Assembly: GCA_039621445.1 (NCBI GenBank)
Contig: CP154954.1
Location: 32,202,012 to 32,266,011 of the forward strand
Reading direction: 5' to 3'
From: Euglena gracilis
Taxonomy: Eukaryota
Length of the DNA: 64,000 nt
Shown: positions 1 through 61,065 of the stretch, piece by piece
How the letters are laid out: each line of letters starts with the position of its first letter
Numbering within the stretch: the first letter of the stretch is position 1
Position numbers and translations under genes: made by a program
Notes under the pieces: model-generated
What the model saw: only the letters and a program-made list of their open reading frames with translations
Database searches by the model: none
Told to the model about the DNA's origin: nothing

Positions 1-2846
1 GCCGACCAGCCGCCGAAGGACGGCGCTGCCCTTTTTTGGGGGTCAGGGGGGGGGGGCAACTTTTGGAAGTTCCACCTGTGCACCAGTGGTGTCTGATGGC
101 TTTGGGGGACACCCATTGCTGCCTGGCCTGACTGTCACGTGCGAAGGTGGCTGTCCTTCTCGGGGGGGGCATTTTATGACTGTTCTCAAAGCCCCTGGGG
201 TTCCTCCACGGAACCTCAGCTTGGGGTGTAGGTTGGAATATCCCCAAAGGGTGCCTTGCAGAACCACATGGGGCGTCCGGGAAGGACGGGAAGAGCAGCG
301 CCCGCCGAGACATGAGGCCCAGCCCGCCGGGGTCCTCCAGCGGAGTGGGCTTGCTGGGGTCTGGCCGGGTCTGGGCCATAGCATTGCTTAATAACCAGCC
401 TGGGGGGGTGGGCAGGGGAGGTTTATTCACCAGCCCACTTTCAACCCCCCCGGGTGGGGACTGGGGGATCACTCCAGCCACTCAAGACAAACTGGTTCAA
501 AACCTCACGCTGATCAACGTCAAAAAAGCTTTCATTTACATCGCGGGGCACTTGCGGCCGACCCCACCCACTCCGAGGGGTCCGGGGCCCAAAAACCAGT
601 CAGCCATCCCCTTGGGGGGGTCCAGCGCATCCCGAGCAATGCAGTGGTCCGGGCCGCGGCCTGGGCCGCCCCAACGGGCCGCTGGGCCGGGGGTGGCTGG
701 GTCGACGGGGGCGGGGGGTCCGGCTGGTGGACGCCGTGGAGGCGGCGGGAGGCGAGCCCGAGGCCGAGGCCCGGGTCGGCCGGTGTGGCGCTGCCCGGGG
801 CGGGGCGGGCCAGCGGGGCGACGGCGGAGGCGCGGCCGGGGCCGGCGGGGGCCGGGGCGGGGCGGGGCTGGGGAGGGGGGGCGGCGGAGGGGGACGGGGG
901 GAGGGGCCGGCCGGCCAGGCTGGCGGAGAGGTCGGGGGCCGGGGCGGCTGACGTGCGGTGTGGCCCCAAAGTGCCCCGGGCATACACGTGGGTCTGTTTG
1001 CTGGGGGGGCATCCATGGGTAGAGAGGAGGGAGGGGAATACATGGGGGGGGGCTGGTGCACACGACAGGGTTCTACGGGGATGTACTACTACTATGTCCG
1101 CAGCGGCCGGGACAAAGAGGAAACAAAGGGCCGACATGAAGTTTCGCAGGAAAGCAGGGTCTTTCATCCTTCGGGGGCTGCCTGTCTGAATCAATTCCAC
1201 CCACCCCAGTAATCCCCCCAGTGGGGGATGGTGGTGTGTGCTTTGCCTTTTGGCCACAACAAGGATGGATATTGGATATCGGCCCATATCGGGTTTATCG
1301 AAAACCTTGAATTTATGGGGTCCCAAAAAAATATCGTGAAATATCGGCTTTTATTGGGGGGGGGGGCAACGTACTTTTTTGTTCTCTCTTTTTTTGGGGC
1401 GACTTTGGGATTCTCCAAATCACAAAAATGAGGATATCGGGGCACAAAATGATCATATCGGTTTTATCAACCTTTATCGACGATATCGGGGCTTCAATCC
1501 ATCCAAATTTATCGCGACCTCCAAAAACCAATATCAATATCCATCCTTGGCTACGATAGTTTGCTGCTGCCAAAGCACAGTGACACAGAGCAGCCCCGGA
1601 GAAGAGCTGACAGGTGGACGGTTGGGCAGGGGGGCGAGGGCGGTGGACTTAGCTGGTGCACGCATAGGAGATGGCATCGAGGGGATGGGAGGGGGACCGC
1701 CTTGAAGACATGGGGTGAAACTGGGACTGTGCGTGTGCGTAAGAACTCCAATGCAACGATGAAGAGACCATCTCACATGGATGAAATCATACGCACACAC
1801 ATGTTTGCTTAACCTTGATTTGTGAAAAGGTGTTAAATACTCATTCGTTTATGGACACACACAATTACTACCTAACCGCCCCCCCCCCCCCCATACCGAA
1901 AGAAACACTGAAGGAAATAATAAACCCCCCCGTATTATTATCTAGACATTCGGAATTGGGGTCCAGGGGGGTTGATTATTTTGGGGGGGGTTCGTTACTT
2001 GGGCGAAATTTTCGAAGTCAAACATGCACCACCAAGAGGCAATACAGGGGACTTTTTTTGGGCATTTTGGGGCTCCTTTGAAAATGGACGAACTTTGGAA
2101 CATAATTTCTGCACCAATTTCCTCCATGTTTGTGTTTCTTTTTTAACCATTCTGTTGATTTCCCCTCTTCATTGCCTTTATGGTTGTCGGGGGATTATTA
2201 TTTGGGGATTTTTTGGGGGTTACAATTTACATTTCCATGCACACCTGCTGAAAAAAAAAGGTGCTCTGCCAACCTCCAATTTTTTGAAAGTTGTCCAACA
2301 ACCCAAAGCCCCTACAAGTGAAGAGTACCTGAAAGGGGAATTTCAATTTCTTGAATACTGAAGGGTTTTGGTTTTGACCCCGAGGGGGGACACACTTCTC
2401 TGCCTCTCTGCAAAAAAAATCCCTGCTCAACCCTGGCACCTCCACCCTCACTTGCTTGTGAACAACGAGCACAAACAAACAAAAATTATGCATTTGTGTC
2501 CATGTGGGTGCTTGCATGCACACGTGAGGTCATGCGTGCGCCTGTGCCATGTGTATCTGCGTGTGACAAACACAGTCGGCCCGATAGTTGGTCAACGGGG
2601 TCCATTCAGGACGTCCCCGGTGCTGCCGAAGCTGCCCGGCAGGCTGCGGTGGGCGGAGCCGCCCCCCGGGGACGCCCGGTCCGCCCACACCCCCGGCGCG
2701 GAGGGGGCGGAGCCCGTCCGCGGCCCGCCGGCCGCCTCCTCCCGCGACGACCCGAGCGCGCCGAACGTGCGGGAACGCTCGCCGAGGCTGCGGCTGGCGG
2801 AGGACGGGCGGAGGGCGGGCCATCCGAGGCCGACCCCCGACGCCAT
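1..2846 (-). CDS. Spliced gene for a Pro/Ala/Ser-rich low-complexity protein; continues off the left edge of the window
   Basis: Phase-consistent exon chain 2597-2846 (MASGVGLGW...GDVLNGP), 1587-1700 (GPPPIPSMPSP...GLL), 650-947, 268-371 (TRPDPSKPTPLEDPGGLGLMSRRALLFPSFPDAP) and 1-30. All introns are GT-AG except 372-649. Third codon positions are GC-rich. The ATG at 2846 is uncertain. Confidence 0.6.
372..649 (-). other. Nonconventional intron formed by a hAT-like MITE (377-646)
   Basis: Inverted ends CATAGCATTGCT...AGCAATGCAGTG are flanked by GTCTGGGC (369-376) and GTCCGGGC (647-654). Removing the element plus one copy joins AAQAAAR|TRPDPSKP in frame. Confidence 0.7.
1260..1549. mobile_element. 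MITE with a perfect 15-bp TIR and repeated GATATCGG/CATATCGG motifs
   Basis: CAAGGATGGATATTG ... CAATATCCATCCTTG; no clean TSD. Confidence 0.65.
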
Positions 2847-3329: not shown

Positions 3330-3448
3330 GGTTGGGCCCGCCCTCGGCACTGACTGCAGTTCGATGTCGGTCGGCCGGCCTCCGCCCATTGACTCCAGCA
3401 GGCTGGCCTGCAGGCCTGCCGGACACTCCCGGCCCCGCGGCGACGCCC
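3330..3448 (-). CDS. Probable exon (ASPRGRECPAGLQASLLESMGGGRPTDIELQSVPRAG); gene assignment unclear
   Basis: GC-rich island with GC-rich third positions in this frame and an upstream AG; frame not confirmed. Confidence 0.35.
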
Positions 3449-3499
3449 TCCCATCAACAACAGCAGCAGCCACCCCCAACCTCCCAATCCTCGAAATAC

Positions 3500-4015: not shown

Positions 4016-4017
4016 GT

Positions 4018-4505: not shown

Positions 4506-4552
<47 letters not shown>

Positions 4553-4857: not shown

Positions 4858-4912
<55 letters not shown>

Positions 4913-5038
4913 ACATATACATACACATGTACATACACAAATATGTATGCATATATGGATGCGGATACGTACACACGTGCATTCACAAATACATATACAC
5001 ATACACACATTACATTATACGTACACACACATGCATGT
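4737..5038. repeat. (CATATA)n microsatellite
   Basis: Seen directly; a (TA)n tract also lies at 4500-4563. Confidence 0.9.
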
Positions 5039-5619
5039 AAACCAAATTCAAACTTTTTTTCACGCTTGTGTCCAATTTCCACCAGGTGCTCCGCACAATG
5101 CTGTTGGTGCCATCAGGCGCAGCCGCGGCCGAGGCAGCTTGCCAGGGATTGTTTGGGCCACAGACATTCCTGGTGGTGGGCCATTGAGGCCGGGGCTAGG
5201 CGAAAACACAATCCACCCCCAAAATCTAAAGCGGTGCCTGAAACGTTGAAAATAAAACCGAAAACGTTGAAACACCAAACATTGGAAACCAGACAAGTTT
5301 AATCAACAAAAAAAATGCCAGGAGTCAATGAATTTCTGGCACAGAAAAAATGTGCGAGAAAAGAACAGGGCTTTCAATGGTTTGGAACATAAATCCTAAG
5401 CTAGGAATGCGTGAAAAATTTTCACTTGCTCTGAGGACAACGGTGGACTACCAAATTTTATCAAGCATTTACTTTAGACCCTCATTTGGGGGAATCGGAC
5501 TAGATGTTTTCAGAAGGCTGCGCCCACGCTCAGGCACCCACCCCCACCCCCCCACCCCCATTCTCACCACCCCCACACCACACCCAAACCCACACCCCCA
5601 CCCACGCACCCACCCACAC

Positions 5620-8600
5620 ACAGACCGCCCCTCCCCGGGCGAACTGCTGGTCCAGCCTCCGGTGCAGGGCCTCCAGCCGCTTCTCCGGGGGCAGCTGCGC
5701 CTCCCGCTGGGCGGTGCGCCGCGCCTGGGTCTCCCGCCGCCGCTGCATCCGCCGGATGCGGTCCGCCACGCCGCCCCACTCCTCCGCCGGTGTGCCGGCC
5801 GGCGGACCGGGGCCTGTGCGGGGGAAGGTGGGGGGAGCAAAGCCTGCCACTGTCCCCCGCGCAGTTTTGCTTAAAGACCGAGGTCTTTAAGCAAACCATT
5901 TTCCGAGCCAATGGGGAAAAAAGCCACTGGCTAGACCCCTCGGCTGAAACCCCCTGAAATGGGGGAAAAAAGCTCCTCCGGCGCTGTGTGTCAGAGGCAG
6001 AAATGGGACTTTCAGGGCGTTGTTGGGCTAATTTTGTTCAAAAAAATCCCGAATTGCCAAAAACGGTCATTTGGGGCAGGCGTTGGGCTGTCAAAAAAAT
6101 CCACAAACTGGCCCTGCTGGCGCACCCCCCCCAGGGGTCCACTAGAAATTCCACAAGCCAAATTTGAACTTGCTGCAGTCGAGCCCCCCCCCCCTGCTGA
6201 GGGGTACTGCAGACCCTTGAGCAGAAGCCTGGTCCCTCACCCCCCACCCCACCAAGGCTGGTGGAGACTTAAAGGTGGGGGGTTTCCCTCCCGCCCAGCC
6301 CAGTGCAGGCCAAACTGCACAAAGCGCACCCCAAAATGTCATTTGTGTTTTTTTATGTTTTTTTGGATTTTAGGATCTTTTCTTAGCTTTATGAGCAAAG
6401 AAAAAAATATCGAAAACAATTCAAAGATCAAGATTTTTGACACAAGATTTTTTCTTCAAAGCAATACTAGAAAAACCACAAAAATATTTAAAAAAATTGC
6501 ACTTAAAGTGCAATTTTATTCATTTTATTCAATGACACTTTTATCTATTTTCACTCCACATTTTCTTTATTATTGGCTTTTAAAAAAAAACGGCGAAAGA
6601 AAGGGTTCCTGAATTTTTATGGATTTACGGCAGCCCCATGACACAAAACCCCAACGTCGCCCAAATGGAGCTCAAAAAACCCAGACGACAATCCAACAAA
6701 CGACCAAACACGAAACTGTGGAACAAATATCTGTGGGGTTTAGCAGCTCTGCATTTTTGCGCATTAAAAAACACCTCTGGAAATGGGGTGGATTTCCTGA
6801 TTTGCTCAGACCAGGGTTTTTCAAGAGAGAATTGTCTGTTGTTCACCTTTTGATTTTATTTTTGCACTGCGGTGCATAAATTTTGGTTGGCTTAATTTTG
6901 TCTTCCTAGCAAACCACATGGCAGGTTGAAGCAATTGTGCTTTGGTGCCAAGAATTTTGTCTTCCTAGCAAACCACATGGCAGGTTGAAGCAATTGTGCT
7001 TTGGTGCCAAGCAATGCCACATTTTCTTCGTCTTGGCTGTTGTATGTCTGTGCGTGTTTGCACTTTTCTTTTTGCCCATGGACGCCTCAATGAGCCCGTG
7101 TCTTTCGTGTTTCGCCGAGTTTTGTCAATTTGTTTTTGTTGACGGATCACGTGCCACATTGGTTATTTTTTTTAAATGTATTTTTGCTTCGTCCCCTTTG
7201 CCCAATATTGGACCAAGGCAGAAACAGCGCCCTCACCAATCTATGGTATGCTGATTTGTGGACCGCCAAGAGATTTAGACTAGGGCTGGATAGAGGTAGA
7301 GGTCGAGGTCAAAACCTCTACCTTTATCTGACCCACCTCCACCTCAACCTCTACCTCTATGTCACCTCTATGTCCATAAAATGTCATAAAATGGCACAAA
7401 AAAGGGTCATAAAACACCCCAAAATGCCTCAAATGTGGCAAGTCTCATCAAAACACATCCAATTAGGGTCGGAATGAGAATGAGAAATATTATCCAGGTG
7501 GGTGGTTTTGAAAGTTGTCATCAGAGATATGTGAAATGACCCCAAAAATGAGCAAAAGTGTGCAAAGTGAGCAAGCACAGAACCGAAAGCACATTCCACA
7601 CATGTGGAATCCAGCGCCAACTTGTATCGCATAGATGCCCATGGAATCTATTGAACAAATTGCTTTGTGAATTTTTTCGAAAATCTTTCCAAATGAGCGA
7701 AAATGGTCACAAAGATAAAGAATGGCATAAAGCATCAGCTAAAAAAATGCACACAAAAAACAAAATGGTGTAAAATGACCTGAAATATTTTGCACTTGCT
7801 CATTTTGACCAAGCAAAGCCCAAAAGCCCCAAATCAGCTCAATATTGACCCAAATTTGTCAAAATGGCCCCAGATTCACAAAAACCGAATCCAAATCGCC
7901 AAAATGGGCATAATATCAGAGACAAGTGAAATAATCCCTCATAAATCCAAAAAAATGACGTGGTTCGGGCTTGAAGAACATGGGTGTGTGAGGGGGAGAT
8001 GAACCAACAGAATCACCCCTTGGCAACCCTGTCGCTGCACCAGACCACACCCTGAAACACCTGCAGGGGGGCAGTTCCCCCTCACTGAAGGACGTGAATT
8101 CTTGCCTTGACACCTGCCGTCGCTGAGCCCAGGGTTTTCCACGCTGCTCTTGGAACAACGCTGGCAGCAACCGGCCCATCACCTCCGCCGGGTGGGGGAC
8201 GGTTGCACGTGCGTTGTGAGGTGCTCCACACGTTCATAAAAGCAGCATAGGCTGGGCTGGGCACTGGACTGCAGCAGGTGAAGTCGAATGCGCAGGCGCG
8301 CATTCTGTTTTGTTCAATGACTTGACGACACCTGCAGCACCGCCCCAGAGCATGCATGGCAGCACACAGCCAATGGCCGCACTGACCAACCTTACGTTGG
8401 GCTGCAGTGCATGGTGCAAGGAGCACTGTGCCCCACAATTAGGGTCAAAGCAGGGGATTGCGTCTGGTTCCACACACATGGTGCTCACGGGGTTGGCACC
8501 TTGAGAGTGAAACACGCCTATCACCACCTTCGGCATCATTCCCAAAAACGGTCTGTAAACACAGAATTATTTCACAATCAAAATGGACTCAAAGAAGTGA

Positions 8601-11600
8601 ACGCGATTGGACAGTCCTTGACCAAAAATTCTCCAGGCCCTTGAGACCGTGAGTCAGGCACAAGCACATCACAAAAGAAAACGACCGATAGAACCGACAA
8701 TTTTTCCCTTCCTGCTTGTTCTGTGTATTCCACTGTGTCGCACCATGGACAATGGATGAGAAAGGGACTTCAGTGCCCAAGGAAATTCCTCAGTGACGGG
8801 CACCCTAATTCCCAACTGCGGTCAGCAGTCTTTCATGGCATGAGTGAAAAGACGGTGAATGCACACATGCGCAAAAAAGCGTCTTGTGCCTTTCTTTGAA
8901 TTACAGCCACACTGCTGAATTTTGTACACCCAGGTGGGCCTGCCACCACCCACGCTCACTCCCCCCCCACCAGGCCTGGGTTTAAAACCACATGGCTGAA
9001 ATATAGACCTCCCTGTGAGGATCGAATGGTGTCCGAGGACAAAGCAACCCTGAAGCGAAACACGGCAGGGGAGGACCACCGCCTGTGGCCTTGTTGGCAA
9101 CAAACGTCACCCACCACACAGATCCCTTTTTTATCATGTACTCAGAGTCGACGCTCCAGCACTCAAAGCCACACAACCCCTGGCCGCTGTGAAGACCAAG
9201 GAAAGCACATATGAAGACACTTTCTCCACACACCCCATCTGCAATGGTTGCAGTCAAACATGGCACATCGGGGTGAATGCGCACATGTGCATTCCCTTCT
9301 TGTGTCTCACCTTAAGGCACCCTGGTAGGAGGTTGCTATGCAGGGCCATGCCAAACAACTCAGCACACAAGGTGGAGGCAGCCCAGGAGACGTCAACCCT
9401 ACTGGCGGCATCCACCTTTGCAATGAGATGCCTCTGAAATCGCTAACAAAAAGGGTGTAGCCCTGTCACAATGCTGCGCTAGCACTGGGTTCAGGAGTGC
9501 AAGACACAGCTCCCCACAACACAGAGAATGCGCACATGCGCACTCCCCCTCACGGAATGCGCAGGTGCGCACTCTTGTGGATGCCCAGCGCTGCTCCCCT
9601 CCTGCTTTTCTGCAGATAGAATCACAGCCAGCCAGCGAAGGAATGGCCTCAAGAGTGCGCACGTGCGCATTCTTGTGCCTCATGCAACCTCGGAGAGGAG
9701 CCATTTTATGTTGTTTGTGAGGGCTGTTCTGGTGGGTGTAGTCTGTGGCAAAAAGAATTGAAGTGGGGCTGCGTTCTGTAGCTTTTAAAACCAGTGACAC
9801 ACAAGAAAGGAGTGCAAACCAGCCCCCCCCCCCTCCATACCCAGCAGCCCATCCCAAACGTCAGACCTAAACACAGGTGGTCGCACATGGTGATGTGCCG
9901 TGGTGCCTATGAGAAGGCATGCGGGACGGACTGCGGGTGCCACTGGAGGGATGCTGTGCCTGCATGTGTCAAGGAGGGGCGCAGTGCACCGTGTGCAATG
10001 CAAACAGCAGGCAGCCTAACGAAAGGTAACGAGCCCTCCCCTACAGACATCTGGTGTGGATTTAAACATACCCTCCCCACCACTCTCTGAATGCAGACTA
10101 CAGGCACAGAACAAACCTTCGCTAGCGCCCCCTTGTGCCCTGCTTCCAACACAGGGTACAGAACCTCCCCTCCAGTCTAACCGTAGAGACCACAATGCCC
10201 CCTTCCCACCCCCACCCCCAGGAGCCACAATAACTGAAACTTCAGGAAAAGTCCGGGAGGGGAGGGGGGTGAATGCACACCTGCGCATTCACTGGGCACC
10301 ACAAAACAGGGGGGACAGCGACAGGTACAACAGCTTCACCTGACGAGGGTTCGCCCTTGCGATACAGCGTTTCGTGTCGCACCAACTTCGGCAGACGGGG
10401 GTTTCCACACGGTCGGCGGAGGTGGTAAACCGTCATTTTCAAAACGAAAAAAGTCGGTTTACCCAGAAAAAAACCCGGGGGTCGAAAGCAGTGGTACTAA
10501 TTTTGGTACCACGGGTTCCAGCTGACGGGTGCGCCGCCCCGTCAAGTGATGGCGACACATTTGGTCAAAAAAGAATGTGCAGGTGCGTAAAAAGCCACCA
10601 AAAATGAAAAGTGCATTCCCGGCCGTTTAAATAAACATTCCAAGACACACTTCTTAAAGGCGTCAAAGCAAAGCTTAAAATTTAATAAAATCCCACTTCT
10701 TTTGTTGCCTTGCTTTTTTTGTGTCCTTTTTGAGCAAATAAAAAGAAAACTAACCAGAAAAAAGTTCAGAAATGGGAGAAAATAAAATAATAATAAAATA
10801 ATAAAATATAAATAAACGGGAACAAATGAAATATAAATACATCTGTTCAAACCTTCAAAAGTTAAACTACCGAGAAAAAAGATCGATGTCGATGGGGGGG
10901 GGGGCAGGCACCCAGGAAAGCGAGGGGCACACCGTGGCTCGGGACAGGCTGTGGCGCACTGTCGTTCATCCAGGCATGAACCGTGCGGCTGGCGTCGGTT
11001 ACAGGGCGCTGACCGGTCTTCCCCCAACCTCAACGTGTCTTGGCCTGTTTTTCAGTCGTTTCGGTTGGTTCGTTGGCTCAGCCGGTACAGCGTTTCCAAT
11101 GCATCATAATGGATGGCGAAAAAGAAACGATGAAAATTTCAGATCAGCGGAAAATGCGGTATGCAGAAGATGGCATGAGCGGAAAATCGAATGTTGAAAA
11201 GATTCCAAACCTTCTGTCTGTGAAATTCAAATTTTAAACTGAATTAGGAGTCACCAAAACAGAATTCTGAATTTTCAAACAACAAGTGGTGAACTTCACA
11301 GAAAGCGTGATGAATTTCTATAAAAACTTTTTTGGAAGGACTGGGAGGGTGGTTCTCTGGGTCAACCCTGGGTGTTTGGGTCGGGTGGGGGCGGCAGGCT
11401 GGGCGGGGCCCCCGGCCCCGGCATCGGCGACGGGGCAGGCGGCGGTGGGTTGCGGCGGAGGTACTCCTCCATGGGGGTGGGGGCGGCGGGGTCCGGTGGG
11501 GGCCGGTCCAGGCCATGGGCCGCCATCGCCTGCGCCAACACCGTCGACACGTTGACGGCCGGCCACCGGGCGAGCGCTTTGCTGGGGGGGGGGGCAGGGC

Positions 11601-14600
11601 GGTCCACCACGAAGAAAAGAAAGCCCGTCTTCTTCCGCCGTCGCCCAGCCTTCTTCTTCCCCACACCACACCCGTCGTCGTCATCACGGGGGGGAGTATG
11701 ACAAGCACCGCCCGGGGCAGGTACCTCTCCTCGTCAAACGCCACCTCCACCCGGCCGTACAGCTCCGCGTCGTCGTCCTCCAGCTGGAGGGGGACAATGC
11801 CACGGGGGCAGGGGACAGGGGAGGTGGCACATAACCATTCCAACCATAGATGCACTGGTGCCCCCCCCCCCCCCCCGGGGCGGCACGTTTCCCCCGGGGC
11901 CAAACCCACCCATCCATCCACCCACTTGTCTCAAAAACCCACCCACCCACAATCCCCCTACGGGGGTCAACCACCCGCCCACCCACCCAGAATCCAGCCA
12001 AAATCGCCTCAAAAACTTCTCTGACCCGGCCGTTGGCCAGGCAGAAAATCCGACCCTATCGCACCCCACCCCCAGGGGAGTCCACGGGCACAACCCACTC
12101 ACCCACTCTCGAAACTCCCCCCGGGGGGGGTCACACAAGTGTTAAATGAATCTCTGGTTCCAACCTCATTTGATGTCCCTGCCACAACTTTGACTTCAGC
12201 GACACAGACAAATTATGGATGCTCCAGAGGCCACCACTGCTTGCGAGTGCATTCGTTCGGCTGATGGGACCTTCACCATAACCCCCCCCCCAAATAACCT
12301 GACGGGGTGCCAGGCTATTGGACCCAACTTTTGCCCCTCCCCCCCCCCCCCCCCGCCAGGCTATTTGGGCCCTTTTCTCAGCGCCATAAAGGAATTTTGC
12401 CTGAAAAGGGGGTGCCAAGTTACTGGAACCAAGTTTTTTCCTCCTGCCAGGTTATCCGGCCACTGCCAGGAGCAAGGGCCCCGCCAGGTCATTTGGGAGG
12501 GAGGTTTACGATTGCTTACCGACCCCCCTGCGGGGGAGGGTCACTTTCCACTTTCAAAAAACTGGTCAATCACTTCCTGTCCCCCCCCCCCCTGGGTTAG
12601 CCACTCGGGCCAAAAACGCTGAAAATAAATGGATTTGGCCAAACCACCCCCCCAAATTTCTGGTGTCTTCGGCGCAGGGTGGCCACTTTCGGTCATTCCT
12701 GGCCACCCCCCCCCCCCCCAAGGTCAAACAGCCCCCCGGGGGGGGGGGGTTGCTCGGACACCTTAAGCCATGGTACGGGGGGGGGGGAGACAACATGGAT
12801 CCTCAAAAATGATGCAAAAAAAAGCACAAATGAACACAAATAATGCAGAAACCGCAATTTGCATGCGTTGTCCGTCAGGAGCTCCCCCGGGATGTACATT
12901 TTCTGCTGGAGAGGATTTTTTCACCTCTGCGGGGTATTTTCATAAAAATATGCAGTTTTATTGACCAAAAATGCAAAAAAGACAGGAATTTGACAAAAAT
13001 TTTGTTCCCATGGGAAATTGGGGCCGAAATGAGGAATTTTCATAATCAGGAAAAAAAACGTTAACGCAAAAAAAACTGAATAACCGCACCCGGACAAACA
13101 CAAAAAGAGCCTGAAATCTTGCCAAAATTGAAAAAAAAAAAAAAAAAGAAAAAAAAAAAAAAAAAGAAAAAAAAAAACAAAAGCCCCTGTAAAAGGCGAA
13201 TTTGGCACCCACCCCTGTTTGGTAAGATCCCCACCCGCCGAACCCCCACAAGCAAACAGTGGGTGCCCCATCCTTCCGGATGAAGCTGAACCCCAATACA
13301 ATACAGTATACGATGGTTTACACATTTGGAGGGCTGCCCCAATCAGTTTGTGGCATTTCTGCTTGAAGCGGATGGCAGCGCACCTTGACCCGGGCCAGCC
13401 GCATCCGCAGCACGGCCCCCCGCCACACGGGCTGGATGCGGCGGCACGCTACCTCGGACCCCAGGAATTCCTGAAGGGGGGTCCCGCCAGCCAGCCTGCC
13501 GGAGGTGCTGACCTGGACCAGACACTCCCCTGGGGGGTCTGTGGCCCGGGTGGGAGCTGCCGGCTGGGGAAAAGGTGCTGGCTGGTTGCCCCCCCCCCCC
13601 AGGTGGTAGGGTGAGGGTCCAATCCGAAGAAATTCCTGCTCGTACCGCCGCCGCCACTCTTCCCACCGCTCCGCCGCCCGCCGCCGCCGCTCCGCCACCG
13701 CGCGGCGCACCGCCAGCCGCCCGCCCAGCCACCGGCCGATGCGCTGCCGCGCCTGCTGCTCCCGGTGGCTGCGCAGCCGCTGCTGGCGGCAGACCCCCCC
13801 CCCTGCAGAGTGCTTGGACCCGGAGCCACCGCCACCACCGCCCGGCGTCGATCCCCAGACCCGATGGGTCCCCATGGGGGTTCGGTTGGGGGTTGGGAAG
13901 GGGTCCGGCGCGGGACCCCTCCCCCCGGGGGCCCGGCTCCGGACTGCACGCACCCCGAGAAAGGTCTTTCGAGTTAAAAAAATGAAGCCTGTTGCGGAGG
14001 AGGGGGGTCGACCCCGGGGCGGACCAACTCATCTCGTCGGCAGACGGGGCGGCCTGGCCGGTACGCAACGGACGGGCGGACCACCGCCTGGTGCGGGGCG
14101 GCGTTCCAGTCCGCGTGCTGGACCACGTGCTGCGCCGCGAGCCGCACCGCCTCCTCCGCGTGGTACAGCTCCAGCTGGTGCCGGGCGGCGAGCACGCCCG
14201 CCTGACTCGGGTGGCTGTGCGACCCTGGGCATGAGGGGGAGGGGTCAAACGTTTGGCTGCCTGCCCAAATGATACGTCCGATGCGTGGCTTGGAAAGTGG
14301 AGCTGGTTTCATTTGGCCAGAGCTGGCACACTTCCGCGCAAACAATTCTCAATGGGGACCCATCTAGCCATCCTTGCGCCTCCCAGGGAACCTAGTCGGG
14401 AGTCCATGGTGCTGCGGCACACCGGACGAGGTCGGGGGCGGCAGCCGCTGCAGCTCCGCCTTCTGCGCCTGGCGCTGGGCGTGCTGCTCCCGCCGCTGGG
14501 CGGAGCGGGGCCAGGGGCTTGGCCAGCGGATCCCGGCCCGATCATCCTCGCTCCACTGGAATCATCAATATCAAAGAATCCTGCCCATTTCGGCAACTGC

Positions 14601-15702
14601 ATCGATTAGACTGATCTTGCTGTGCTTTATCTTTTCGTGATGTACTTGCACATGATAAGTGGGGACGTTGTTCAACCACATGGTGCGGCACTTCATCCCA
14701 ACACAAATCCAGAAGGCCGAATCACCGCCATGAATATCTGATGAGGAAATTGAAGAGGAAACGGGAAATATGACCGTGTATGGCTGCATAAAAGCAGAGT
14801 GGGATAATTTAACCACACATTGCCAACCTAGATGCATTTCACCTTTAAGGGCAGCAACAGGATCTTTGAGGGTAGCACAGGACATTTGCTCCTTGTAATA
14901 AAGCTGATTGAGTTTGCGGTTGGCTAATTGAAGCCAAAAACGAATTGAAGGAAATGGGTATGAGCTGGGGCTTTTTTTTATATACCAAATCGTTGATTGT
15001 CTGTTTAATTAAAGTGCGATGTTAATACTATTGGCAAGCTCGTCAATCAAGGCAAAAATAAACTCAGACACCAAATGGAGGCATACATTGCTGCCTGCCG
15101 AGGAAACCGGCCAACAACCAAAGGCCCCCAGGCAAGCCCCTCGGGCACATCGCATCGAACGTCCGCAGCCGCCAGGCCTCCGGGCCGAGGCTGCGCTGCA
15201 GCGGGTGTCCCACCACCCCGCCGGGGGTCGGGGCAGGCATTGCTTTTTTTAAGTCGCCTTTCTAACCCTTCTGAAGCTGATAAGAAATCATTGTTGGCAA
15301 AACTTTTCTCCAACCGAGCAAAAATTCGAAAACCCTCGGCAAAAAAAATAACCAACTCCGGGGAAAATAATTTCTGGCGTCACTGGGAAGTTGTATTTCC
15401 ACCCCGACTCAAAAAAACAGGAGGTTTCCACTTGTGATTTTGGACCCCATTCGACTCCCGGACGGGTCATGGATGGATTTAATAAATTTAATTAAAAATA
15501 AATAAATTTAAAAACACTTAAAATATTTGAAAATTTCCACCTCAAAACATAATGCCTGGTTTGGGGCGGCGGGTAGGTGGGCCCCGCCCGGAGGATGGGC
15601 CCCCAGGCCGGGGTGGGCGGGGCCCCGCCGGGCTGGGGCTGCAGCAGCACTGCGGGCAGCGGCAGGTTGTGGTCGAAGCACGGGGGCAAGGCGGGGGGGG
15701 GT
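5620..15702 (-). CDS. Spliced IQ-motif (calmodulin-binding) protein; C-terminal part resembles LRRIQ1-type proteins
   Basis: Exons ~15562-15702, ~15130-15228, 14423-14555, ~14010-14224, 13642-~13849, 13384-13455, 11709-11783, 11367-~11580 and ~5620-5813. IQ-like motifs are RVQALCRG..CR and ACRRIQPVWRGAVLRMRL. These are followed by acidic LEDDDAELYGRVEVAFDEERYL and C-terminal AEEWG...LPPEKRLEAL. Several GT-AG junctions are phase-consistent. The LRRIQ1 likeness is from recall only. Confidence 0.7.
6894..7011. repeat. Perfect 59-bp tandem duplication
   Basis: aattttgtcttcctagcaaaccacatggcaggttgaagcaattgtgctttggtgccaag occurs twice. Confidence 0.9.
8690..10627 (+). mobile_element. Partial copy of a non-autonomous Harbinger-like element; inverted homologue at 51981-56815
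   Basis: Long reverse-complement similarity to ~51981-53120, ~54920-54983 and ~55665-56290. It ends in GAAAAGTGCATTCCCGGCCGTT followed by TAA and carries recurrent GAATGCGCA-NN-TGCGCATTC palindromes. Left end not found. Confidence 0.75.
12291..12505. mobile_element. Small MITE with ACCCCCC...GGT ends; inverted copy at ~21615-21837
   Basis: Shared internal sequence (gccaagttactggaacc, ccgccagg-tatttggg) in opposite orientation; TA-type flanks. Confidence 0.65.
13456..13641 (-). other. Nonconventional intron formed by a hAT-like MITE (13462-13638), immediately upstream of an IQ motif
   Basis: The minus-strand intron starts GAG-CAG and has CAGGAATT...AATTCCTG inverted ends. Flanks are CTCGGACC(C) and CTCGTACC. 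Removal gives WEEWRRRY|EVACRRIQPVWRG. The interior shares the CCAGCCAGCACCTTTT motif with free MITEs. There is one extra base at the 3' end, possibly a homopolymer error. Confidence 0.75.
15229..15561 (-). other. Probable nonconventional intron formed by a MITE (15234-15558)
   Basis: CAGGCATT...AATGCCTG ends with flanks GGTCGGGG / GTTTGGGG. The minus-strand intron starts AAC-CAG. It sits between two GC-rich exons; the joined frame is ambiguous. Confidence 0.6.
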
Positions 15703-16239
15703 CTGGGGAGGTTGGGTTCAGCCAAATGGGCCAGTGAAGGGGGGGAGCCAACCCTGTTTGCAACCAGGTGGGCCAAAGTGGGGGAAGAGAGCAGCCTCGG
15801 AGTGGAATTGCAGGGCAACCCCCCTCCTGCTAAAATGGCAACCGAGGGGCCAGGAGGCCGGGGTTGATGAGTATGGACACGCTGATCAACTTCTCATCGT
15901 GTCATGATGGTTGGCCAAATCGGGGAATGGGTGACGTAGGAAGCCGTTCGCACTGGACCTTCGAGGGGAGACAAACCGAACCACGACTGTCTCGCGCTCG
16001 TCCTCAAAGAAACCCTCGGCACCCCCACCTTGCTGACATAGTCACATAACCAACAGACAGCCAAAGGATGGGCGGCACAGTCTGGTGGATGTGCAACACC
16101 GCCTGGTGGATGTGCGTCACCATCTCTTAACTGTCTGTCACATGTAAGTCACTGTCCAATGGATATGTGCCACCGTCCAGTGGATGTGCATCTCTATCCA
16201 ATGGATATGCCTCACCACCTGGTGGACATGTGTCACAGT

Positions 16240-16533
16240 CATACCATTGCAGAGCACCTGTCCTGCCCCACCCCCAGGGGGGTGACTGACTGGTTTTCCG
16301 GCCCAGAGCCACCCCCCCCCTGGGGGGGGTGGGGTAGGCCTGAAAATGAAAAGTGGCTGGCCTGGCGCCGAAGGCGCCGGATTTTTTGACAACATTTCAT
16401 TGCCTCCTGAAGCGTGGCCGATCCCCCCGGGGGGATAAAGTGACTGATTGGTTTTTTTTCAGAAAAAATGACTGATTGGTTTTTCAGAGTGGAAAGTGAC
16501 CGCCTCCCCAGGGGGTCGCTAAGCAATGGTATG
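16240..16533. mobile_element. hAT-like MITE with a perfect 8-bp TSD
   Basis: GTCACAGT | CATACCATTGC...GCAATGGTATG | GTCACAGT. Confidence 0.85.
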
Positions 16534-16896: not shown

Positions 16897-17204
16897 CAGG
16901 CTTGTGCTTAGTCGGGTGCCTACCCCACGGGGGGGGGGGGGGGCTAGGGGCAGGCACCCCATAGCACCCGATCCGACCCCCCCCCCCCGGGGGGGAGTAG
17001 GGTTTTGGGGGGGGTGCTTGCCCCTAGCAGGCGCCCCCCTCCGACCCCGGCGCCGAAGGCGCCGGGGGCCCGGAAACGGCCTTTTTCAATGAAAATTTTC
17101 TGGGTCCGGCCCGGACCCCTACCCCCCCCCCGGGGGGGTGTGCCTGCTAGGGGCAGGCACCCTATAGCACCCACCCCCCCCCCCGGTCGGTAAGCACAAG
17201 CATG
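16897..17204. mobile_element. hAT-like MITE with a perfect 8-bp TSD
   Basis: GTCAGTGT | CAGGCTTGTGCTTA...TAAGCACAAGCATG | GTCAGTGT. Confidence 0.88.
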
Positions 17205-20200
17205 GTCAGTGTCCGGTGGATGTGCATCACCGTCCGGTGGATGGGCATCACCGTCCGGTGGATGTGCATCACCGTCCGGTGGATGGGCATCACCGTCCGG
17301 TGGATGTGAGTTACTGTCCGGTGGATGTGCGTTGCTGTCCGGTGGATGCGAGTCACCGTCAGGATGTGTATCACCGTCTGGGGGATGTGCGTCATTGTCC
17401 GGTGGATGGGCGTCACCATCGGGTGGATGTGCGTAAATGTTCGGTGGATGTGCGTCACCGTCCGGTGGAACTGCGTCACCGTCTGGTGCATGTGTGCCAC
17501 CGTCCGGTGGATGTTTGCCACCGTCCGGTGGACGTGAGTTACCGTCTGGTGGACGTGCGTCACCGTCCGAAGGAATATGCGCCTATGTCCGGTGGATGTG
17601 CATCACCGTCCGGTGGATGTGTGTCACCGTGCGGTGGATGTGCGTCATTGGATGTGTGTCACGGTCCAGTGGAGGTGCGTCACCGTGCGGTGGATGTACG
17701 TCACCGTCTGGTGGAGGTGCCCGGTGGATGTGCGTCACCGTCTGGTGGATGTGTGTCACCGTCCGGTGGATGTGCATTACCATCCGGTGGATGTGTGTCA
17801 CCGTCCGGTGGATGTGCGTTACTGTCCGGTGGATGTGCGTCACCGCCCGGTGGAGGTGCGTCACCGCCCGGTGGAGGTGCGTCACCGTCCGGTGGATTTG
17901 CGTCACCGTCTGGTGGATGTGTGTCACCGTCCGGTGGATGTGCATCACTGTCCGGATGATGTTCGTCGTTGGATGTGTGTCACCGTCCAGTGGATGTACA
18001 TCACCGTTCGGTGGATGTGCGTCAGTGTCCGGTGGATGTGCATCACCGTCCGGTGGATGTGCTTCACCGTCCGGTGGATGTGCGTCGTTGGATGTGTGTC
18101 GCCGTCCGGTGGATGTGCGTTACTGTTCGGTGGATGTGCGTCACCGTCCGGTGGATGTGCATCACCGTTTGGTGGATGTGCGTCACCGTCCTGTGAATGT
18201 GTATTACCCTCCGGTAGATGTGCGTTACTGTTCGGTGGATGTGCGTCACCATCCGGTGGATGTGCATGACCGTTCCGTGGAAGTGTGTCACCGTCCTGTG
18301 AATGTGTATTACCCTCCGGTGGATGTGCATCGCCGTTCTTCGGATGTGTTTCACCGTCCTTCGGATGTGCGTCACCAGTGGATGGGCATCAACGTCCAGT
18401 GGATGTGAGTTACCGTCCGGTGGATGTGAGTTATTGTCTGGTGGATGTGCGTCACTGTCGGGTGGATGGGCGTCACCACCGGGTGGATGTGCGTCACTTT
18501 TCGGTGGATGTGCGTCACGGTCCGGTGGAACTGCGTCGCCATCTGGTGCATGTCTGCCACCGTCCGGTGGATGTGCGCCGTTGGATGTGTGTCGCCGTCT
18601 GGTGGATGTGCGTCACCGTCCGGTGGATGTGCATCACCATCCGGTGGATGTGCATCACCGTCCGGTGGATGTGCGTCATCTTGCGGTGGATGTGTGCGTT
18701 GTTGAATGCGTGTCACCGTCTGGTGGATGCACGTCACCATTTGGTGGATGTGTGTCACCGTCCTTCGGATGTGCGTCACCGTCCGGTGGATGTGTATTAC
18801 CCTCCAGTGGATGTGCATCACCGTCTTTCGGATGTGCGTCAGTGTCCGGTGGATGTGCATCACCGTTTTTCGGATGTGCGTCACCGTCCGGTGGATGTGC
18901 ATCACCGTCCGGTGGATGGGCATCACCGTCCGGTGGATGTGCGTCACCTTGCGGTGGATGTGCGTTGTTGAATGCGTGTCACCGTCTGGTGGATGCATGT
19001 CACCATTTGGTGGATGTGTGTCACCGTCCTTCGGATGTGCGTCACCGTCCGGTGGATGTGTATTACCCTCCAGTGGATGTGCATCACCGTCTTTCGGATG
19101 TGCGTCAGTGTCCGGTGGATGTGCATCACCGTCTTTCGGATGTGCGTCACCGTCCGGTGGATGTGCATCACCGTCCGGTGGATGGGCATCACCGTCCGGT
19201 GGATGTGCATCGTTAGATGTGTGTCACCGTCTTTCGGATGTGCGTCAGTGTCCGGTGGATGTGCATCACCGTCTTTCGGATGTGTGTCACCGTCCGGTGG
19301 ATGTGCATCACCGTCCGGTGGATGGGCATCACCGTCCGGTGGATGTGCATCGTTGGATGTGTGTCACGGTCTGGTGGAGGTCTTTCACCGTCCGGTGGAG
19401 GTGCGTCACCGTCCGGTGGATGTGCGTCACCGTCCGACGGGTGTGCATCACTGTCCAGTGGATGTGCATCACTGTCCGGTTGATGTGTGTCACCGTCCGG
19501 TGGATGTGCGTCAGTGTCTGGTGTACGTGCGTCACCATCCGGTGGATGTGTGTCACCATCCAGTGGATGTGCATCGTTGGATGTGTGCCACGGTCTGGTG
19601 GATGTGTGTCACCGTCCGGTGGATGTGTGTCACCATCCGGTGGAGGTGCGTCACCATCCGGTGGATGTGTGTCACCGTGCGGTGGATGTGTGTCACCTTC
19701 CTTCGGATGTGCGTCAGTGTCCGGTGGAGGTGCGTAACTCTCCGGTGGATGTCGTCACCGTCTGGTGGATGTGCATCACCGTCCGGTAAATGTGAGTTAC
19801 CGTTTGGTAGATGTGAGTTACCGTTCAGTGGATGCGCATCACCGTCCGATGGATGTGTGTCATCGTCCGGTGGCTGTGCGTCACCGTCCGGTGGATTTAC
19901 ACACAATACGGTGGAGGTGCGTCACCTTCCGGTGGATGTGCGTCGCTGTCCAGTGGATGTGCGTCACCGTCTGGTGGATGTGTGTCACCGTCTGGTGGAC
20001 GTGTGACTTTGCCCAGTGTATTTGTGTCACCTTCTGGTGGATGTGCGTCACCGTCCGGTAGATGTTCATCACCGTCCGGTGGAATATGCGTCACCGTCCC
20101 GTGGATTTGCGTCACCGTCCGGTGGATGTGTGTTACCGTCCGGTAGAGGTGGGTCACCCTCCGGTGGATGTGCATCACGGTCCGCCGGAGCATGCGTCAC

Positions 20201-22668
20201 CGTCCAGTGGATGTGTGTTACCGTCCGGGTAGGTGGGTCACCCTCCGGTGGATGTGCATCACGGTCCGCCGGAACACGCGTCACCGTCCAGTGGATGTGT
20301 GTTACCGTCCGGCAGAGGTGGGTCACCCTCCGGTGGATGTGCATCACCGTCCGCCGGAACATACGTCACCGTCCAGTGGATGTGTGTCACCGTGCTGTGG
20401 CTGTGCTACACCGTCCGGTGGATGTGCGTCACCATCCGGTGGATGTGCGTCACCGTACAGTGGATGTGCATCACCATCTGTATGGATCTTAGGAGGCCGG
20501 ATTCGCATTTAAGCTTTTTTATGTTTATTTGCACATTTGCGCAAATCCCGGAATTTCTTCACTTCGGCTGTATGGCTCCGGGGGTGTTTGAAAACACGGT
20601 GACAAGAGAGTGCAAAAAATGAGCTAAATTCTGTTTTTGGCTGTGAGACCCCTGGGGCTTTGGCCAAAAATGGTGTTTTTGGTGGGTCCGGAAATGGCCT
20701 CCGCGCGTCGAAACCCCCGGGACTTTCCCGTCCAAGGGAGAAAAAAATGGCAAAAAAGCGGCAAAGGAACGGGACCTTTGCTGCCCTTGTTGCTCTTGTC
20801 GGCTGTTTTCCTGGGTGGGCCTGGATTGCCGGCGGTGTGTGTCCTGGGTGTTTGCCGGACTGCTTCGCTTGTGGCGCCTTGGTGTGGTGTTTTTGGGTTG
20901 TTTGTTAAAGCGCGGGGAGGAAGTGCTGGGGGGTGAGGGTGCGGTGTGGCCAAGCCGGCGGGAAGGACGCAGGGAAAGGAAGATAAGTGTGGGGTGTTTG
21001 GCAAGGAATGCGCAGGGGGGAAGAAATAGGGACCTCAGGGAATGAAGTTTCCCACCCTATTTACACCCGGGATCTGCACAACCAGTTTTGTGGCAAAGAA
21101 CCCGGCAGAAGAAGCCGAACCCTTAAAGAACAAATTTGTGTTTATTTGCGCAATTGCGCACCAACATAATTATGTTGGTGCGCGCATTTGCGCAAATAAA
21201 CATAATTGTGTCTTTCAAGGGTTGGTCTTCAACACCCATGAACTGATGCCGTCGGTAAACGGCGTGACAAAGGGGCCGTGACGGTGCGAACCAGCGTGCC
21301 ATCGATAAACATAATTTGGTGGGTTTGTCTCACCGTTTGTCGACGGCGTTAGCTTATGGGCGCAAATGCGCGCACAAACAAAACTATGTTTATGCGCGCA
21401 TTTGCGCCCACGAAAAAAATTTGTATTGGTGGACGCAAATGCGCACATAAACCCAAAGAAGAAGGGTGTGACGGAAACACAATTGTGAAACGCCAGCAGC
21501 AGATGTGGTTCATTTGCGCATTTGTGCCCACAAGCAACGTGATGCGCGCAAATGCGCAAATGAACCACCAATGGAGGAGTAAAAAGTGGCTTCATTTGGC
21601 CCTCCAACAGCTAACCCCCCCCCAAAATACCTTGGCAGGGCCCAAATTCCTGGCGGGGGCCGAACAACCTGGGGGGGGGAGGGGCAAAAAAGATGGTTCC
21701 AGTAACTTGGCGGGGTCCTTTTTAGGCAAAATTCTTTTACGTCGCTGAAAAAGTGGCCCAAATAACCTGGCGGGGGGACAAGGCCAAAAGTTGGTTCCAA
21801 TAACCTGGCACCTCGCCATTTTATTTGGGGGGGGGTTACCCTTTGTGGCCTCTGAATGGGTTCAACACAAATGGCCACACCGTCTCCTCCGGCACATGGT
21901 ATTATGGTGCTGTTTCTGGTCCATTGACAGGTCCCACAAAAGAGGATCTCCTGAAGGTGGGTGTGCAGCCACCCGATAACGGCACACGTCCACCGGCACC
22001 GATTATGGGATCCCAAGGGCCCTGCCGCTGGCCTGCAGCCTCGGCTCCGCTGCTGCAGCCACATAAGCTGCGGATGCTTCTGCACCCACCAGACCGGCAT
22101 CCACCTCCCCGGTGCAACAACACCGAGCTTTAGCAGCCACGTTATTCCCCGCAACCGGCGTGTGAGACTGGGGGACGACGTGGTGCCAGTGCTTGGCAAC
22201 CAGCAGCCGGAGATAGGTAGCCCTCAAACACCCGTCATTTTGGGTGCAAGGAAGTGTTGAACCTTTACCATTTGACTGGTTGCATGAAAGCGGTGGGACC
22301 CACTCCCCTCAAATTATGCACAAAAACTGGTGTGTTTTACGGTTTTCAAGGGAAAAATGGTGGAGAAAAACCAGAAAACGGACTCCGGCCCGACGCAACC
22401 CGGGTGTTTCAGGTGCCAAATTTTGACTTCTTGTAACGCAGTACTGTTGCAGAAAAGGTGTCGAACAGTCACTGGTCGTTGCACGTCGTCAATTCATTAT
22501 GTTTAGTTGCCAAAAGCATGAGGCCAAAACAACACGCCGTGTGGACCGGAGAACAGCAGTGCAAATGTCCACACGTAAGGCAGACAAATTATGGCCAGTC
22601 AGATGCCGTGTTTAAATGAATATTGCATACTACCTCTCACCACAAATTTCATCACCACATATTTTATC

Positions 22669-43764: not shown

Positions 43765-44227
43765 TAGTGTGTGATGTAATAGGGCTCTGTGTGTTCTTAT
43801 GGGCGGCTACAGTATTCAAGCCAGTTCAGCACGTCGGCACCAGTTCCAAGTGTCGTAACAGCGGGTTTGTGCTTCTCACCTGTTTGATGTACGAGAGCAC
43901 CAGTCTCACCCTCGGCCTTATTCATATCACTCGGTAAGCAGATGTGCACTAAACTGCTGGCGTTAATCCCCTCCAATAGAGGGGTGTAACGGTTCATAAT
44001 CTGTTTTCTCTGTGTGTCAGGGTACAGGGTCCCAGAAATTTTGCAAAATTTGTGCATTTGCGCAAATGCGCCCATTTCAAAGAAAAAAACTTTAAGTGCG
44101 AATCCGGCCGCCTTAGTGGATGTGTGTCACCGTCCGGTGGATGTGTGTCACCATCCGGTGGATGTGTGTCACCATCCGGTGGATGTGTGTCACCATCCAG
44201 TGGATGTGCGTCACCGTCCGGTGGATG

Positions 44228-45142: not shown

Positions 45143-61065
<15,923 letters not shown>

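Follow-up and report, generated by a model that had tools for sequence, protein, structure and literature searches.

A 64,000-nucleotide stretch of Euglena gracilis DNA (contig CP154954.1, positions 32,202,012 to 32,266,011; hereafter, the window) holds both free MITEs and at least one nonconventional intron, verified by RNA, whose ends are of the same type. Free MITEs with 8-bp target duplications (TSDs) probably gave rise to nonconventional introns, which would be spliced scarlessly since their 3-nt and 5-nt spacers add up to 8. In the proposed mechanism, a genome with euglenid-type nonconventional splicing would host related non-autonomous DNA transposons (MITEs) with CAG/CAT..CTG/ATG ends, and each insertion would duplicate exactly 8 bp. 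In a transcribed exon, the inverted ends of such an element would fold into a stem recognised by the nonconventional splicing system, whose upstream cut would fall 3 nt from CAG and whose downstream cut would fall 5 nt from CTG. As these distances add up to the length of the duplication, the RNA would lose the element and a single duplication copy, which would restore the original exon. The arithmetic, as given in the original prediction, is sound: cuts at these distances remove the element plus 8 nt, i.e., one duplication.

The origin of euglenid nonconventional introns and the mechanism of their removal have been questions since the 1990s. Such introns leave as circular RNA, later than the conventional ones. 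The idea of a MITE origin is not new and has been in print since 2013; earlier suggestions of this kind have been repeated, but without mobile copies in hand. Like I3, euglenid nonconventional introns as described in the available text of four papers (Milanowski et al. 2014, PMC3935182; Milanowski et al. 2016, PMC4770533; PNAS 2025, PMC12501133; a review, PMC11282704) are non-GT-AG and carry CAG at +4..+6 and CTG at -8..-6, CA and TG being the most conserved letters; they also have a terminal stem and short junction repeats and have been proposed to be of MITE-like origin. Unlike our reading, the available text of these papers holds no fixed 8-bp duplication rule, no hAT assignment and no statement that the sum of the spacers equals the duplication. 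According to the accessible part of one report (PMC12501133), knock-ins established the 3-nt and 5-nt spacers, nonconventional introns make up 71.8% of E. agilis introns, and 84.4% of the introns of this species are "slidable" owing to junction repeats. Direct repeats of eight nucleotides are described for a recently gained gapC intron, and each of the two junctions shows Y|R (PMC4770533). The 3 + 5 = 8 arithmetic fits both the spacer knock-ins (PMC12501133) and the 8-nt repeat at the new intron (PMC4770533), as far as the available text of the two papers goes. The literature covered, that is, outside subscription journals and supplements, contains no free MITEs with 8-bp TSDs in euglenids, no hAT assignment and no 3 + 5 = 8 argument; Table S3 of PMC4770533 and the SI of PMC12501133 may be relevant to this negative result.

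All five free MITEs named in the original prediction (M1-M5) were found at their sites (Table 1). Each runs from CA to TG, has inverted termini and is bordered by an 8-bp TSD without mismatches. Their terminal complementarity is at least 9/12 in every case, and the two ends of M3 are identical over the first 16 nt. M5 lies head to tail with M4 in the same 8-mer target, so that GTGGCAAC is present three times. M1 sits within a 21-bp minisatellite, and the insertion point of M2 is the homologous place of the minisatellite unit that also hosts M1. Start motifs are CAGG or CAGAG in M2-M8 and CATAC in M1, the right end of M2 is CATGC, and TIR identity ranges from 12/20 to 16/20.

The same scan for CA..TG ends with an 8-bp duplication gave 199 hits, and the other 194 all lie within microsatellite or minisatellite DNA. 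After repeat masking, four such elements occurred in the unmasked 34.5 kb, whereas 100 dinucleotide shuffles averaged 0.07 and never gave more than 1; M2, whose right flank was masked, falls outside this count. Precisely 8 bp are duplicated: of the 194 CA..TG pairs whose TIRs reach at least 11/14, four showed 8/8 adjacent identity and none 9/9. When TIR pairs starting with the 15 other dinucleotides were considered, only one perfect 8/8 was found. An alternative delimitation, with elements 2 bp longer (AC CAG...CTG GT) and a 4-bp duplication, was rejected because the left positions of M1 and M2 are GT rather than AC and the 8-bp repeat is perfect in 5/5.

Three further complete copies (M6, M7 and M8) and several fragments are also present in the window. 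Minimum-energy folding gives CAG:CTG pairing, on one strand or on both, for all eight complete free or nested MITEs, and in M3-M6 the stem extends 2 bp into the duplication. A search of metagenomes with the 16-nt terminus of M3 matched at least 119 records, which we judged to be chance matches and not extra copies; among the 80 loci listed, 79 had one isolated hit that lacked a partner end, and the remaining locus had three hits in tandem. Rfam searches found no family in the window.

Table 1. Positions of MITEs, introns and exons in the window
Feature	Position	Strand	Description
M1, free MITE	16240..16533		294 bp; ends match 15/20; TSD GTCACAGT twice
M2, free MITE	16897..17204		308 bp; TSD GTCAGTGT twice
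M3, free MITE	53703..54175		473 bp; TSD GTCCACAC twice
M4, free MITE	54984..55408		425 bp; TSD GTGGCAAC twice
M5, free MITE	55417..55664		248 bp; TSD GTGGCAAC twice
M6, MITE-like	50298..50589		292 bp; TIR 15/20; flanks 6/8
M7, M3-family member	61798..62888		1091 bp; flanks 7/8; hosts nested element
M8, nested within M7	61919..62534		616 bp; TIR 16/20; flanks 7/8 but low complexity
MITE copy or fragment, family of 13462-13638	45447..45832		right end resembles terminus of 13462-13638; flanks 5/8 (by eye)
M4-like fragment	5974..6231		inverted orientation; 76-77% identity; right terminus 6231
M3-like element, right end	56882..56962		terminus at 56962
I1, candidate intron	372..649	-	element 377-646, 270 bp; flanks 7/8; in-frame stops
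I2, candidate	13456..13641	-	element 13462-13638, 177 bp; short M3-like family member; coding-like surroundings
I3, nonconventional intron	15229..15561	-	333 nt; element 15234-15558 plus spacers; 3 in-frame stops
I4, candidate intron	58150..58530	+	element 58153-58525, 373 bp; flanks 6/8; 2 in-frame stops
I5, further nonconventional intron	13785..14059	-	5' edge observed
Exon piece	15562..15681	-	RNA-type contig; TTG + 5 nt upstream, a nonconventional-type 3' end
Exon, inferred	15145..15228	-	from the contig's 168 letters and distances to piece ends
Exon, inferred	14422..14505	-	from the contig's 168 letters and distances; strong codon periodicity
Exon piece	14060..14223	-	RNA-type contig; strongest codon periodicity of segments tested (p=2.6e-10)

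An 8-bp duplication combined with CAG/CAT..CTG/ATG ends is the signature expected of hAT-type elements. The hAT target consensus is nTnnnnAn, and hAT TIRs begin with (C/T)A(G/A)NG. In this small sample, T occupies position 2 in all four distinct perfect duplications and A occupies position 7 in two of the four. Like the elements in the window, hAT MITEs, of which Mar of Drosophila is reportedly an example, are noncoding and have an 8-bp TSD. Short inverted ends starting from CAG(G/A)G and a T-rich target position 2, the further traits of hAT MITEs, may be shared in part, as M1 and I1 begin with CATA/CATAG rather than CAGNG. Three features prompt the putative hAT label: the length of the duplication, the terminal motif and the T found at position 2 of the target. 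The autonomous hAT partner sought in the original prediction was not seen here: there is no long transposase-like ORF among the 217 ORFs of at least 130 aa in the window, and Pfam recognized no domain in 14 flanking ORF pieces, with one sub-threshold 12-residue match.

Removal from RNA was observed for I3. Read and contig alignments covered positions 5000-16100, a range set by long simple repeats on either side; raw RNA reads there were sparse (126 and 66). A 1225-nt RNA-type contig (record 6 of run X15, a run guessed to be RNA, the contig being about 97% identical to the window with 8 other letters in 284) skips 15229-15561; it covers 15562-15681 and 14060-14223, with 168 letters between them. 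Contigs of a DNA run, X2, span both junctions of the intron (14975-15291 and 15345-15896), and X15 also contains the interior of I3, seen as a 15386>15523 joint. The exon edge at 15562 was observed; read on the minus strand, precisely 3 nt separate it from CAG (exon|AAC CAG). By contig arithmetic, the other edge would be at 15228, with 15225 as a possible alternative. The borders are AA..CG on the minus strand, i.e., not GT-AG, and among the introns in the window I3 alone was found to be nonconventional on these grounds. Its flanks match at 6/8 in strict register, and in the minimum-energy fold CAG (+4..+6) pairs with CTG (-8..-6).

The minus-strand gene to which I3 belongs, at about 13.3-15.7 kb, offers two further observed edges. 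At 14060, the exon is followed by GGC CAG, i.e., 3 nt to CAG, and at 15681 it is preceded by TTG plus 5 nt. All three observed exon edges (15562, 14060 and 15681) agree with the published 3-nt or 5-nt spacing. The edge at 14060 opens another nonconventional intron, I5, which was absent from the original prediction. Its 3' edge is predicted from CTG plus 5 nt, a TIR of 15/20 and codon phase; it contains in-frame stops, its flanks match at 4/8, and its fold pairs two of three positions of CAG:CTG. We also considered an end at the first CTG (13808-13806), which needs a 6-nt spacer; the candidate end at 13792-13790 was preferred because it gives a 5-nt spacer and a TIR of 15/20 and leaves the phase unchanged. 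In the same gene, the intron at 14224-14421 fits GT-AG and has no MITE features, and the intron between 14506 and 15144 has, by eye, no CAG at +4..+6.

The original prediction named four elements, those of I1-I4, as interrupting coding frames, with flanks matching at 6/8-7/8. The described ends are present in all four. Interruption of a coding frame is borne out for 15234-15558 by the RNA-type contig; the other three cases rest on codon periodicity and open frames, the latter being common by chance in DNA as GC-rich as this. The flank figures were confirmed for three of the four (7/8, 6/8 and 6/8) and failed for 13462-13638, which matches at 3/8 in register. For arbitrary CA[GTC]..[CAG]TG pairs, the background probability is 0.0071 for at least 6/8 and 0.0010 for at least 7/8. 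Among TIR-bearing pairs, 9/194 had flanks of at least 6/8 in register, as compared with 1-7/194 off register; a single 6/8 is weak evidence because off-register controls also reach this level.

I1, I2 and I4 would likewise be spliced out. I2, I3, I4 and I5 all show CAG...CTG at +4..+6 and -8..-6 under the 3 + 5 cut, and I1 reads CAC...ATG; the fold of I1 pairs two of three positions. Removal of I1 (278 nt) yields a joined open frame of 357 codons, the longest of six, and its right flank shows codon periodicity (p=0.004). For I2, the minimum-energy fold pairs CAG with CTG, and the flanks reach 7/8 only when an additional base separates the left repeat from CAG. A strict 3 + 5 cut of I2 (185 nt) breaks the codon phase of both sides, and 186 nt (3 + 177 + 6) are needed. 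I2 may instead be retained because it has no in-frame stop inside; when the junctions were checked against RNA, no joint over 13462-13638 was among those listed for the sparse RNA reads at 5000-16100. In I4, CAG:CTG pairing is absent from the minimum-energy fold, and the 53-aa piece downstream gave no homology hit when compared with longer proteins. The flanks of I4 were presumed to be transporter-motif-like, an idea we dropped.

A relationship between intron interiors and free MITEs, also part of the original prediction, held for I1 and I2. The interior of I1 matches that of M1 (74% over 70 nt, E=2e-6), and four further MITE copies resemble I2, the best with 81% over 68 nt and E=4e-13; I3 and I4 show no interior similarity to any other element within the window. 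Counting both strands, the window contains five copies of a rare 8-mer, CATTGCTT; three of them sit 5-6 nt in from a terminus, one each in I1, I3 and M1. The introns would descend from these MITEs, with I3 as at least one case of a MITE-derived intron and I5 and I2 probably as further cases, the duplications having partly decayed. The 13 elements can plausibly be ordered from fresh to decayed, as the original prediction had it; they do not amount to a demonstrated series in which every stage is present.

Transposon-derived introns are known from other systems, here compared as far as the available text of one source describes them (PMC11282704). Introners of Micromonas, Aureococcus and other organisms are similarly DNA transposons with inverted ends that insert into exons, the target duplication aiding restoration of the RNA, such that insertions are nearly harmless and introns multiply (PMC11282704). 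Unlike the introns in the window, which follow a non-spliceosomal-looking CAG/CTG-stem rule with an 8-bp duplication, introners depend on the spliceosome, which removes them at GT/GC-AG sites, with one splice site coming from the duplication (3 bp in M. pusilla; PMC11282704). I3, whose borders are not GT-AG, falls outside this spliceosomal class. Noncanonical introns of Fritillaria borealis and Amoebophrya also have inverted ends and junction duplications and are thought to be MITE-derived, but an adapted spliceosome is said to remove them and their duplications are 3-5 nt (PMC11282704).

We consider it rather unlikely that MITEs and nonconventional introns are unrelated, with the splicing system recognising any CAG...CTG hairpin and hAT ends happening to start with CAG. 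I3 would then be an old intron of other origin, the flank similarities would be chance in GC-rich DNA, and I1, I2 and I4 would be plain MITEs in untranslated or non-coding DNA or, for I2, a kept in-frame insert. The lack of interior relatives of I3 in the window, which fits such an origin, is set against the CATTGCTT core that its terminus has in common with I1 and M1 (3/5 window occurrences). Chance similarity of flanks agrees with the 6/8 matches found off register in 1-7/194 TIR pairs; the 7/8 flanks of I1, with a background of 0.001, and the 8-nt repeat at the published new intron, as given in the available text (PMC4770533), argue otherwise. Non-coding surroundings are consistent with RNA support limited to one of four candidates, the lack of Pfam domains in flanking ORFs, the open frame of I2 and the lack of relatives of I4 in the window, but I1 and I4 have in-frame stops beside codon-periodic flanks (p=0.004 for the right flank of I1).

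Two other alternatives were considered. The junction repeats might have arisen through double-strand-break repair, by filler DNA or microhomology, and not as transposase duplications. Milanowski et al. 2016 read their own 8-nt repeat in this way, according to the part of the paper at hand (PMC4770533), and the poor match of the flanks, 4/8 for I5 and an in-register 3/8 for I2, would suit it. Perfect repeats of a fixed 8 bp in 5/5, multi-copy families, nesting in one case and use of the same target 8-mer twice indicate instead transposase behaviour, and we regard break repair as very improbable. The direction could also be reversed, with excised circular intron RNAs copied back into DNA and free copies descending from introns; circular excised introns have been reported, as cited in the available text of PMC11282704 and PMC12501133. 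Copies derived from RNA should, however, keep the 3 + 5 spacer letters of their donor, whereas M3 and M7, members of one family, differ beside CAG/CTG and each have their own local 8-bp duplication; we give this reversal almost no credence.

If the free MITEs are indeed the source of nonconventional introns, the origin of the latter becomes testable genome-wide through flank register, family clustering and insertion polymorphism. The strict 3-nt and 5-nt spacers would gain a simple reason, namely that scarless removal requires them to add up to the duplication length, and the search for a matching transposase and a stem-measuring enzyme would become well defined. Transposons would also have a second, spliceosome-independent route for large-scale creation of introns.

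A broader reading, which is possible though doubtful at present, is that the consensus published for euglenid nonconventional introns is, in its entirety, the footprint of one transposon superfamily. CAG and CTG would be the terminal bases of the transposon and the 3-nt and 5-nt spacers the two parts of the 8-bp duplication. After such cuts, the stem would have a 3' overhang of 2 nt. This geometry is reminiscent of RNase III-type enzymes, for which a double-stranded stem is the substrate, and may point away from the spliceosome. The splicing system could then be a host defence tuned to the insertion geometry of one family, which would in turn have allowed that family to fill exons. [quoted passage not shown]

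Splicing is established for one of the four proposed nonconventional introns, I3, by a contig of a run guessed to be RNA (X15). The RNA comparison was limited to positions 5000-16100 and used two raw RNA runs under the same species label and at very low depth (126 and 66 reads), X15 and a DNA contig run, X2; words of the window were covered to about half by DNA-type contig runs and to about a tenth by guessed-RNA contig runs. Record 6 of X15 (1225 nt, depth 13.3) aligns to 15562-15681 (record 762-881) and to 14060-14223 (record 1050-1213). The 168 letters between these pieces cover 15185 and 14457, as judged by differing letters in the rows listed, and distances to the piece ends (41 and 36) point, among the rows listed, to two 84-nt exons, 15145-15228 and 14422-14505; the upper exon edge might instead lie at 15225 rather than 15228. 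The record skips 15229-15561, i.e., I3 plus 8 nt, and X2 contigs span both I3 junctions. I3 is therefore present in DNA and absent from processed RNA, and of the four junctions at which the original prediction called for RNA support, this one was borne out. The I3 interior is found in X15 itself, as an allele with an internal deletion of 136 nt; this deletion of the AT-rich core (15386-15523) occurs in X15 and X2 alike.

The flanking exons are strongly codon-periodic (p from 2.6e-10 to 5e-4) and stay in phase across the 168-nt total, and I3 carries three stops in the exon frame. On the minus strand, the edges read exon/AAC-CAG at 15562, exon/GGC-CAG at 14060 and TTG-CCCCC/exon at 15681; all three, of nonconventional type, thus keep to the 3-nt or 5-nt spacing known from the literature. 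The edge at 14223 is a conventional ...CCCAG/G. The intron 14506-15144, whose boundaries are deduced from the X15 contig, ends in CTG followed by 6-7 nt, lacks CAG at +4..+6 and, as we read these boundaries, matches the pattern of neither conventional nor standard nonconventional introns. Position 14457 is G in every read or contig of three RNA-type runs (X21 5/5, X24 1/1, X15 depth 13.3) and C in the assembly and X2 (G in 0/148 depth), a difference that may reflect strain, paralogy or editing; RNA-type letters also differ at 15185 and 14126.

Free MITEs with perfect 8-bp duplications had been predicted at five places. The window was scanned for identical 8-mer pairs, 80-1500 bp apart, directly flanking a CA...TG segment with terminal complementarity of at least 9/12. 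This gave 199 matches, 194 of them within simple repeats, and the other five were exactly the predicted elements, M1-M5 (see the table). Repeat masking leaves 34.5 kb with four of these elements, since the right flank of M2 falls under the mask, versus a mean of 0.07 and a maximum of 1 in 100 dinucleotide shuffles. Among CA..TG pairs with a TIR of at least 11/14 (n = 194), adjacent identity was 8/8 in four and 9/9 in none, and a single 8/8 came from all TIR pairs that open with any of the remaining 15 dinucleotides; thus, the duplication is 8 bp long and tied to CA..TG ends. M6-M8 came from a looser scan and blastn.

Transposable elements, proposed introns and tandem repeats of the window
Feature	Position	Duplication or flank identity	Remarks
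M1	16240-16533	GTCACAGT
M2	16897-17204	GTCAGTGT
M3	53703-54175	GTCCACAC
M4	54984-55408	GTGGCAAC
M5	55417-55664	GTGGCAAC
M6	50298-50589	6/8
M7	61798-62888	7/8	M3 family, nested M8 inside
M8	61919-62534	7/8	nested in M7
MITE fragments	6231, 45832, 56962		termini
I1	377-646	7/8, strict register	minus strand
I2	13462-13638	3/8, strict register	minus strand; 7/8 only with one extra base between left repeat and CAG
I3	15234-15558	6/8, strict register	minus strand
I4	58153-58525	6/8, strict register	plus strand
I5	13785-14059 (predicted)	only 4/8	minus strand
21-bp minisatellite	17211-20475		consensus GTCCGGTGGATGTGCGTCACC; 158 copies (TRF, from 17211); similar units from about 16150
79-bp-unit satellite	22669-43243		20.6 kb; 157-bp dimers, about 130 copies, 92-94% matches

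M4 and M5 are different MITEs that occupy one target 8-mer head to tail (54976-55672), with three copies of GTGGCAAC, a pattern suggesting either that the target is strongly preferred or that a copy of the duplication was hit again. The insertion points of M1 and M2 correspond to each other within the unit of the 21-bp minisatellite. A central hairpin motif, GGCGCC-GAA-GGCGCC, is common to M1, M2, M5 and one fragment (positions 16364, 17049, 55508 and 56825), with six matches in the window at up to three mismatches versus 0.48 expected; MITE families with differing ends share it. The tentative label hAT-like draws on three features of the hAT consensus: duplication length, which agrees in our elements, the terminal motif, which agrees in most but not all of their ends, and T at target position 2, seen in 4/4 distinct perfect duplications, a small sample.

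If the duplication is written t1-t8, an insertion would read t1..t8-CAG...CTG-t1..t8, and cuts 3 nt before CAG and 5 nt after CTG would join t1-t5 to t6-t8, the pre-insertion sequence. That such cuts remove the element plus one duplication, as the original prediction had it, follows from this notation. Any spacer pair summing to 8 would restore the target likewise, the published pair being 3 and 5. The scheme would account for the identical pyrimidine-purine step at both junctions and for the frequent junction repeats, both stated as rules in published work (PMC4770533, PMC12501133). The targets of M3-M6 read GT....AC, so that the folded stem reaches 2 bp beyond the element on the duplication side; 3/5 cuts on this stem would leave a 2-nt 3' overhang.

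Kinship of introns and free MITEs, as judged within the window, holds for I1 and I2. The I1 interior matches that of M1 (74% over 70 nt, E=2e-6), and for I2 there are matches to four other copies, at best 81% over 68 nt (E=4e-13), whose subterminal motif it shares. No relatives of the I3 and I4 interiors were found within the window; the I3 end has in common with M1 the 8-mer CATTGCTT, of which the two strands of the window carry five copies, and three of these lie 5-6 nt in from the termini of I1, I3 and M1.

The terminal motifs of I1-I4 are as had been described in all four, and the claimed 6/8-7/8 matching flanks stood for I1, I3 and I4 and failed for I2 in strict register. Arbitrary pairs of such ends reach 6/8 or better with a background probability of 0.0071, and 7/8 or better with one of 0.0010; TIR-bearing pairs reach at least 6/8 in 9/194 in register versus 1-7/194 in shifted registers, and the 6/8 values are suggestive only. 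Both I2 flanks keep one codon phase (p=3e-5 and 0.057), and a removal would therefore have to span a multiple of 3: 186 nt (3+177+6) instead of 185. Such a candidate removal agrees with the one-base offset of the I2 duplication and with a 3' spacer that, according to PMC12501133, tolerates one extra base. I2 may also simply be retained, because it contains no in-frame stop.

For I1, a candidate 278-nt removal would give a joined open frame of 357 codons, the longest of six; several in-frame stops lie inside the element, and codon periodicity is seen in the right flank (p=0.004) and not in the left (p=0.44). I4 has weakly periodic flanks (p=0.048 and 0.24) and two in-frame stops, and CAG:CTG pairing was not found in its fold. 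The edge at 14060 exposes a further nonconventional-type intron, I5, which the original prediction did not include; its extent is predicted from CTG+5 nt, a TIR of 15/20 and a codon-phase change between 14060-14223 and 13642-13791. Pfam found no domain in 14 flanking ORF pieces, and a protein homology search with one flanking piece gave no match.

A MITE origin of these introns is already in print as a hypothesis (PMC3935182, PMC6221363, PMC11282704, PMC12501133, PMC12621601). A 2024 review (PMC11282704) calls CAG/CTG the inverted repeat and the junction repeats duplication-like, and a 2016 paper (PMC4770533) describes a newly gained intron with an eight-nucleotide repeat, which it interprets as break repair. 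Our literature search, which covered main texts of papers open without subscription, found no report from a euglenid genome of free copies flanked by 8-bp duplications, no hAT-type assignment for such elements and no mention that the two spacers add up to the length of the duplication. The observation behind the original prediction was largely right, and its interpretation, as judged within this window, is well supported; it sharpens a hypothesis already published and is not new in itself.

The window is of mixed composition: besides GC-rich gene-like parts it contains satellite, minisatellite and microsatellite DNA and numerous short elements in which C/G palindromes abound. The 79-bp-unit satellite occupies one third of it, and a short array related to the 21-bp minisatellite lies at 44115-44227. 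The segments 7226-10935 and 12049-12790 are a very high-copy repeat with short ORFs only: X2 summed contig depth is 10^4-10^5 versus roughly 100-250 in most single-copy bins, contig joints are many, and depth is high in X15 too. At 48492-49459, two long arrays, (ATAC)n and (ATGT)n, lie in opposed orientation and form an imperfect inverted repeat of roughly 400 nt.
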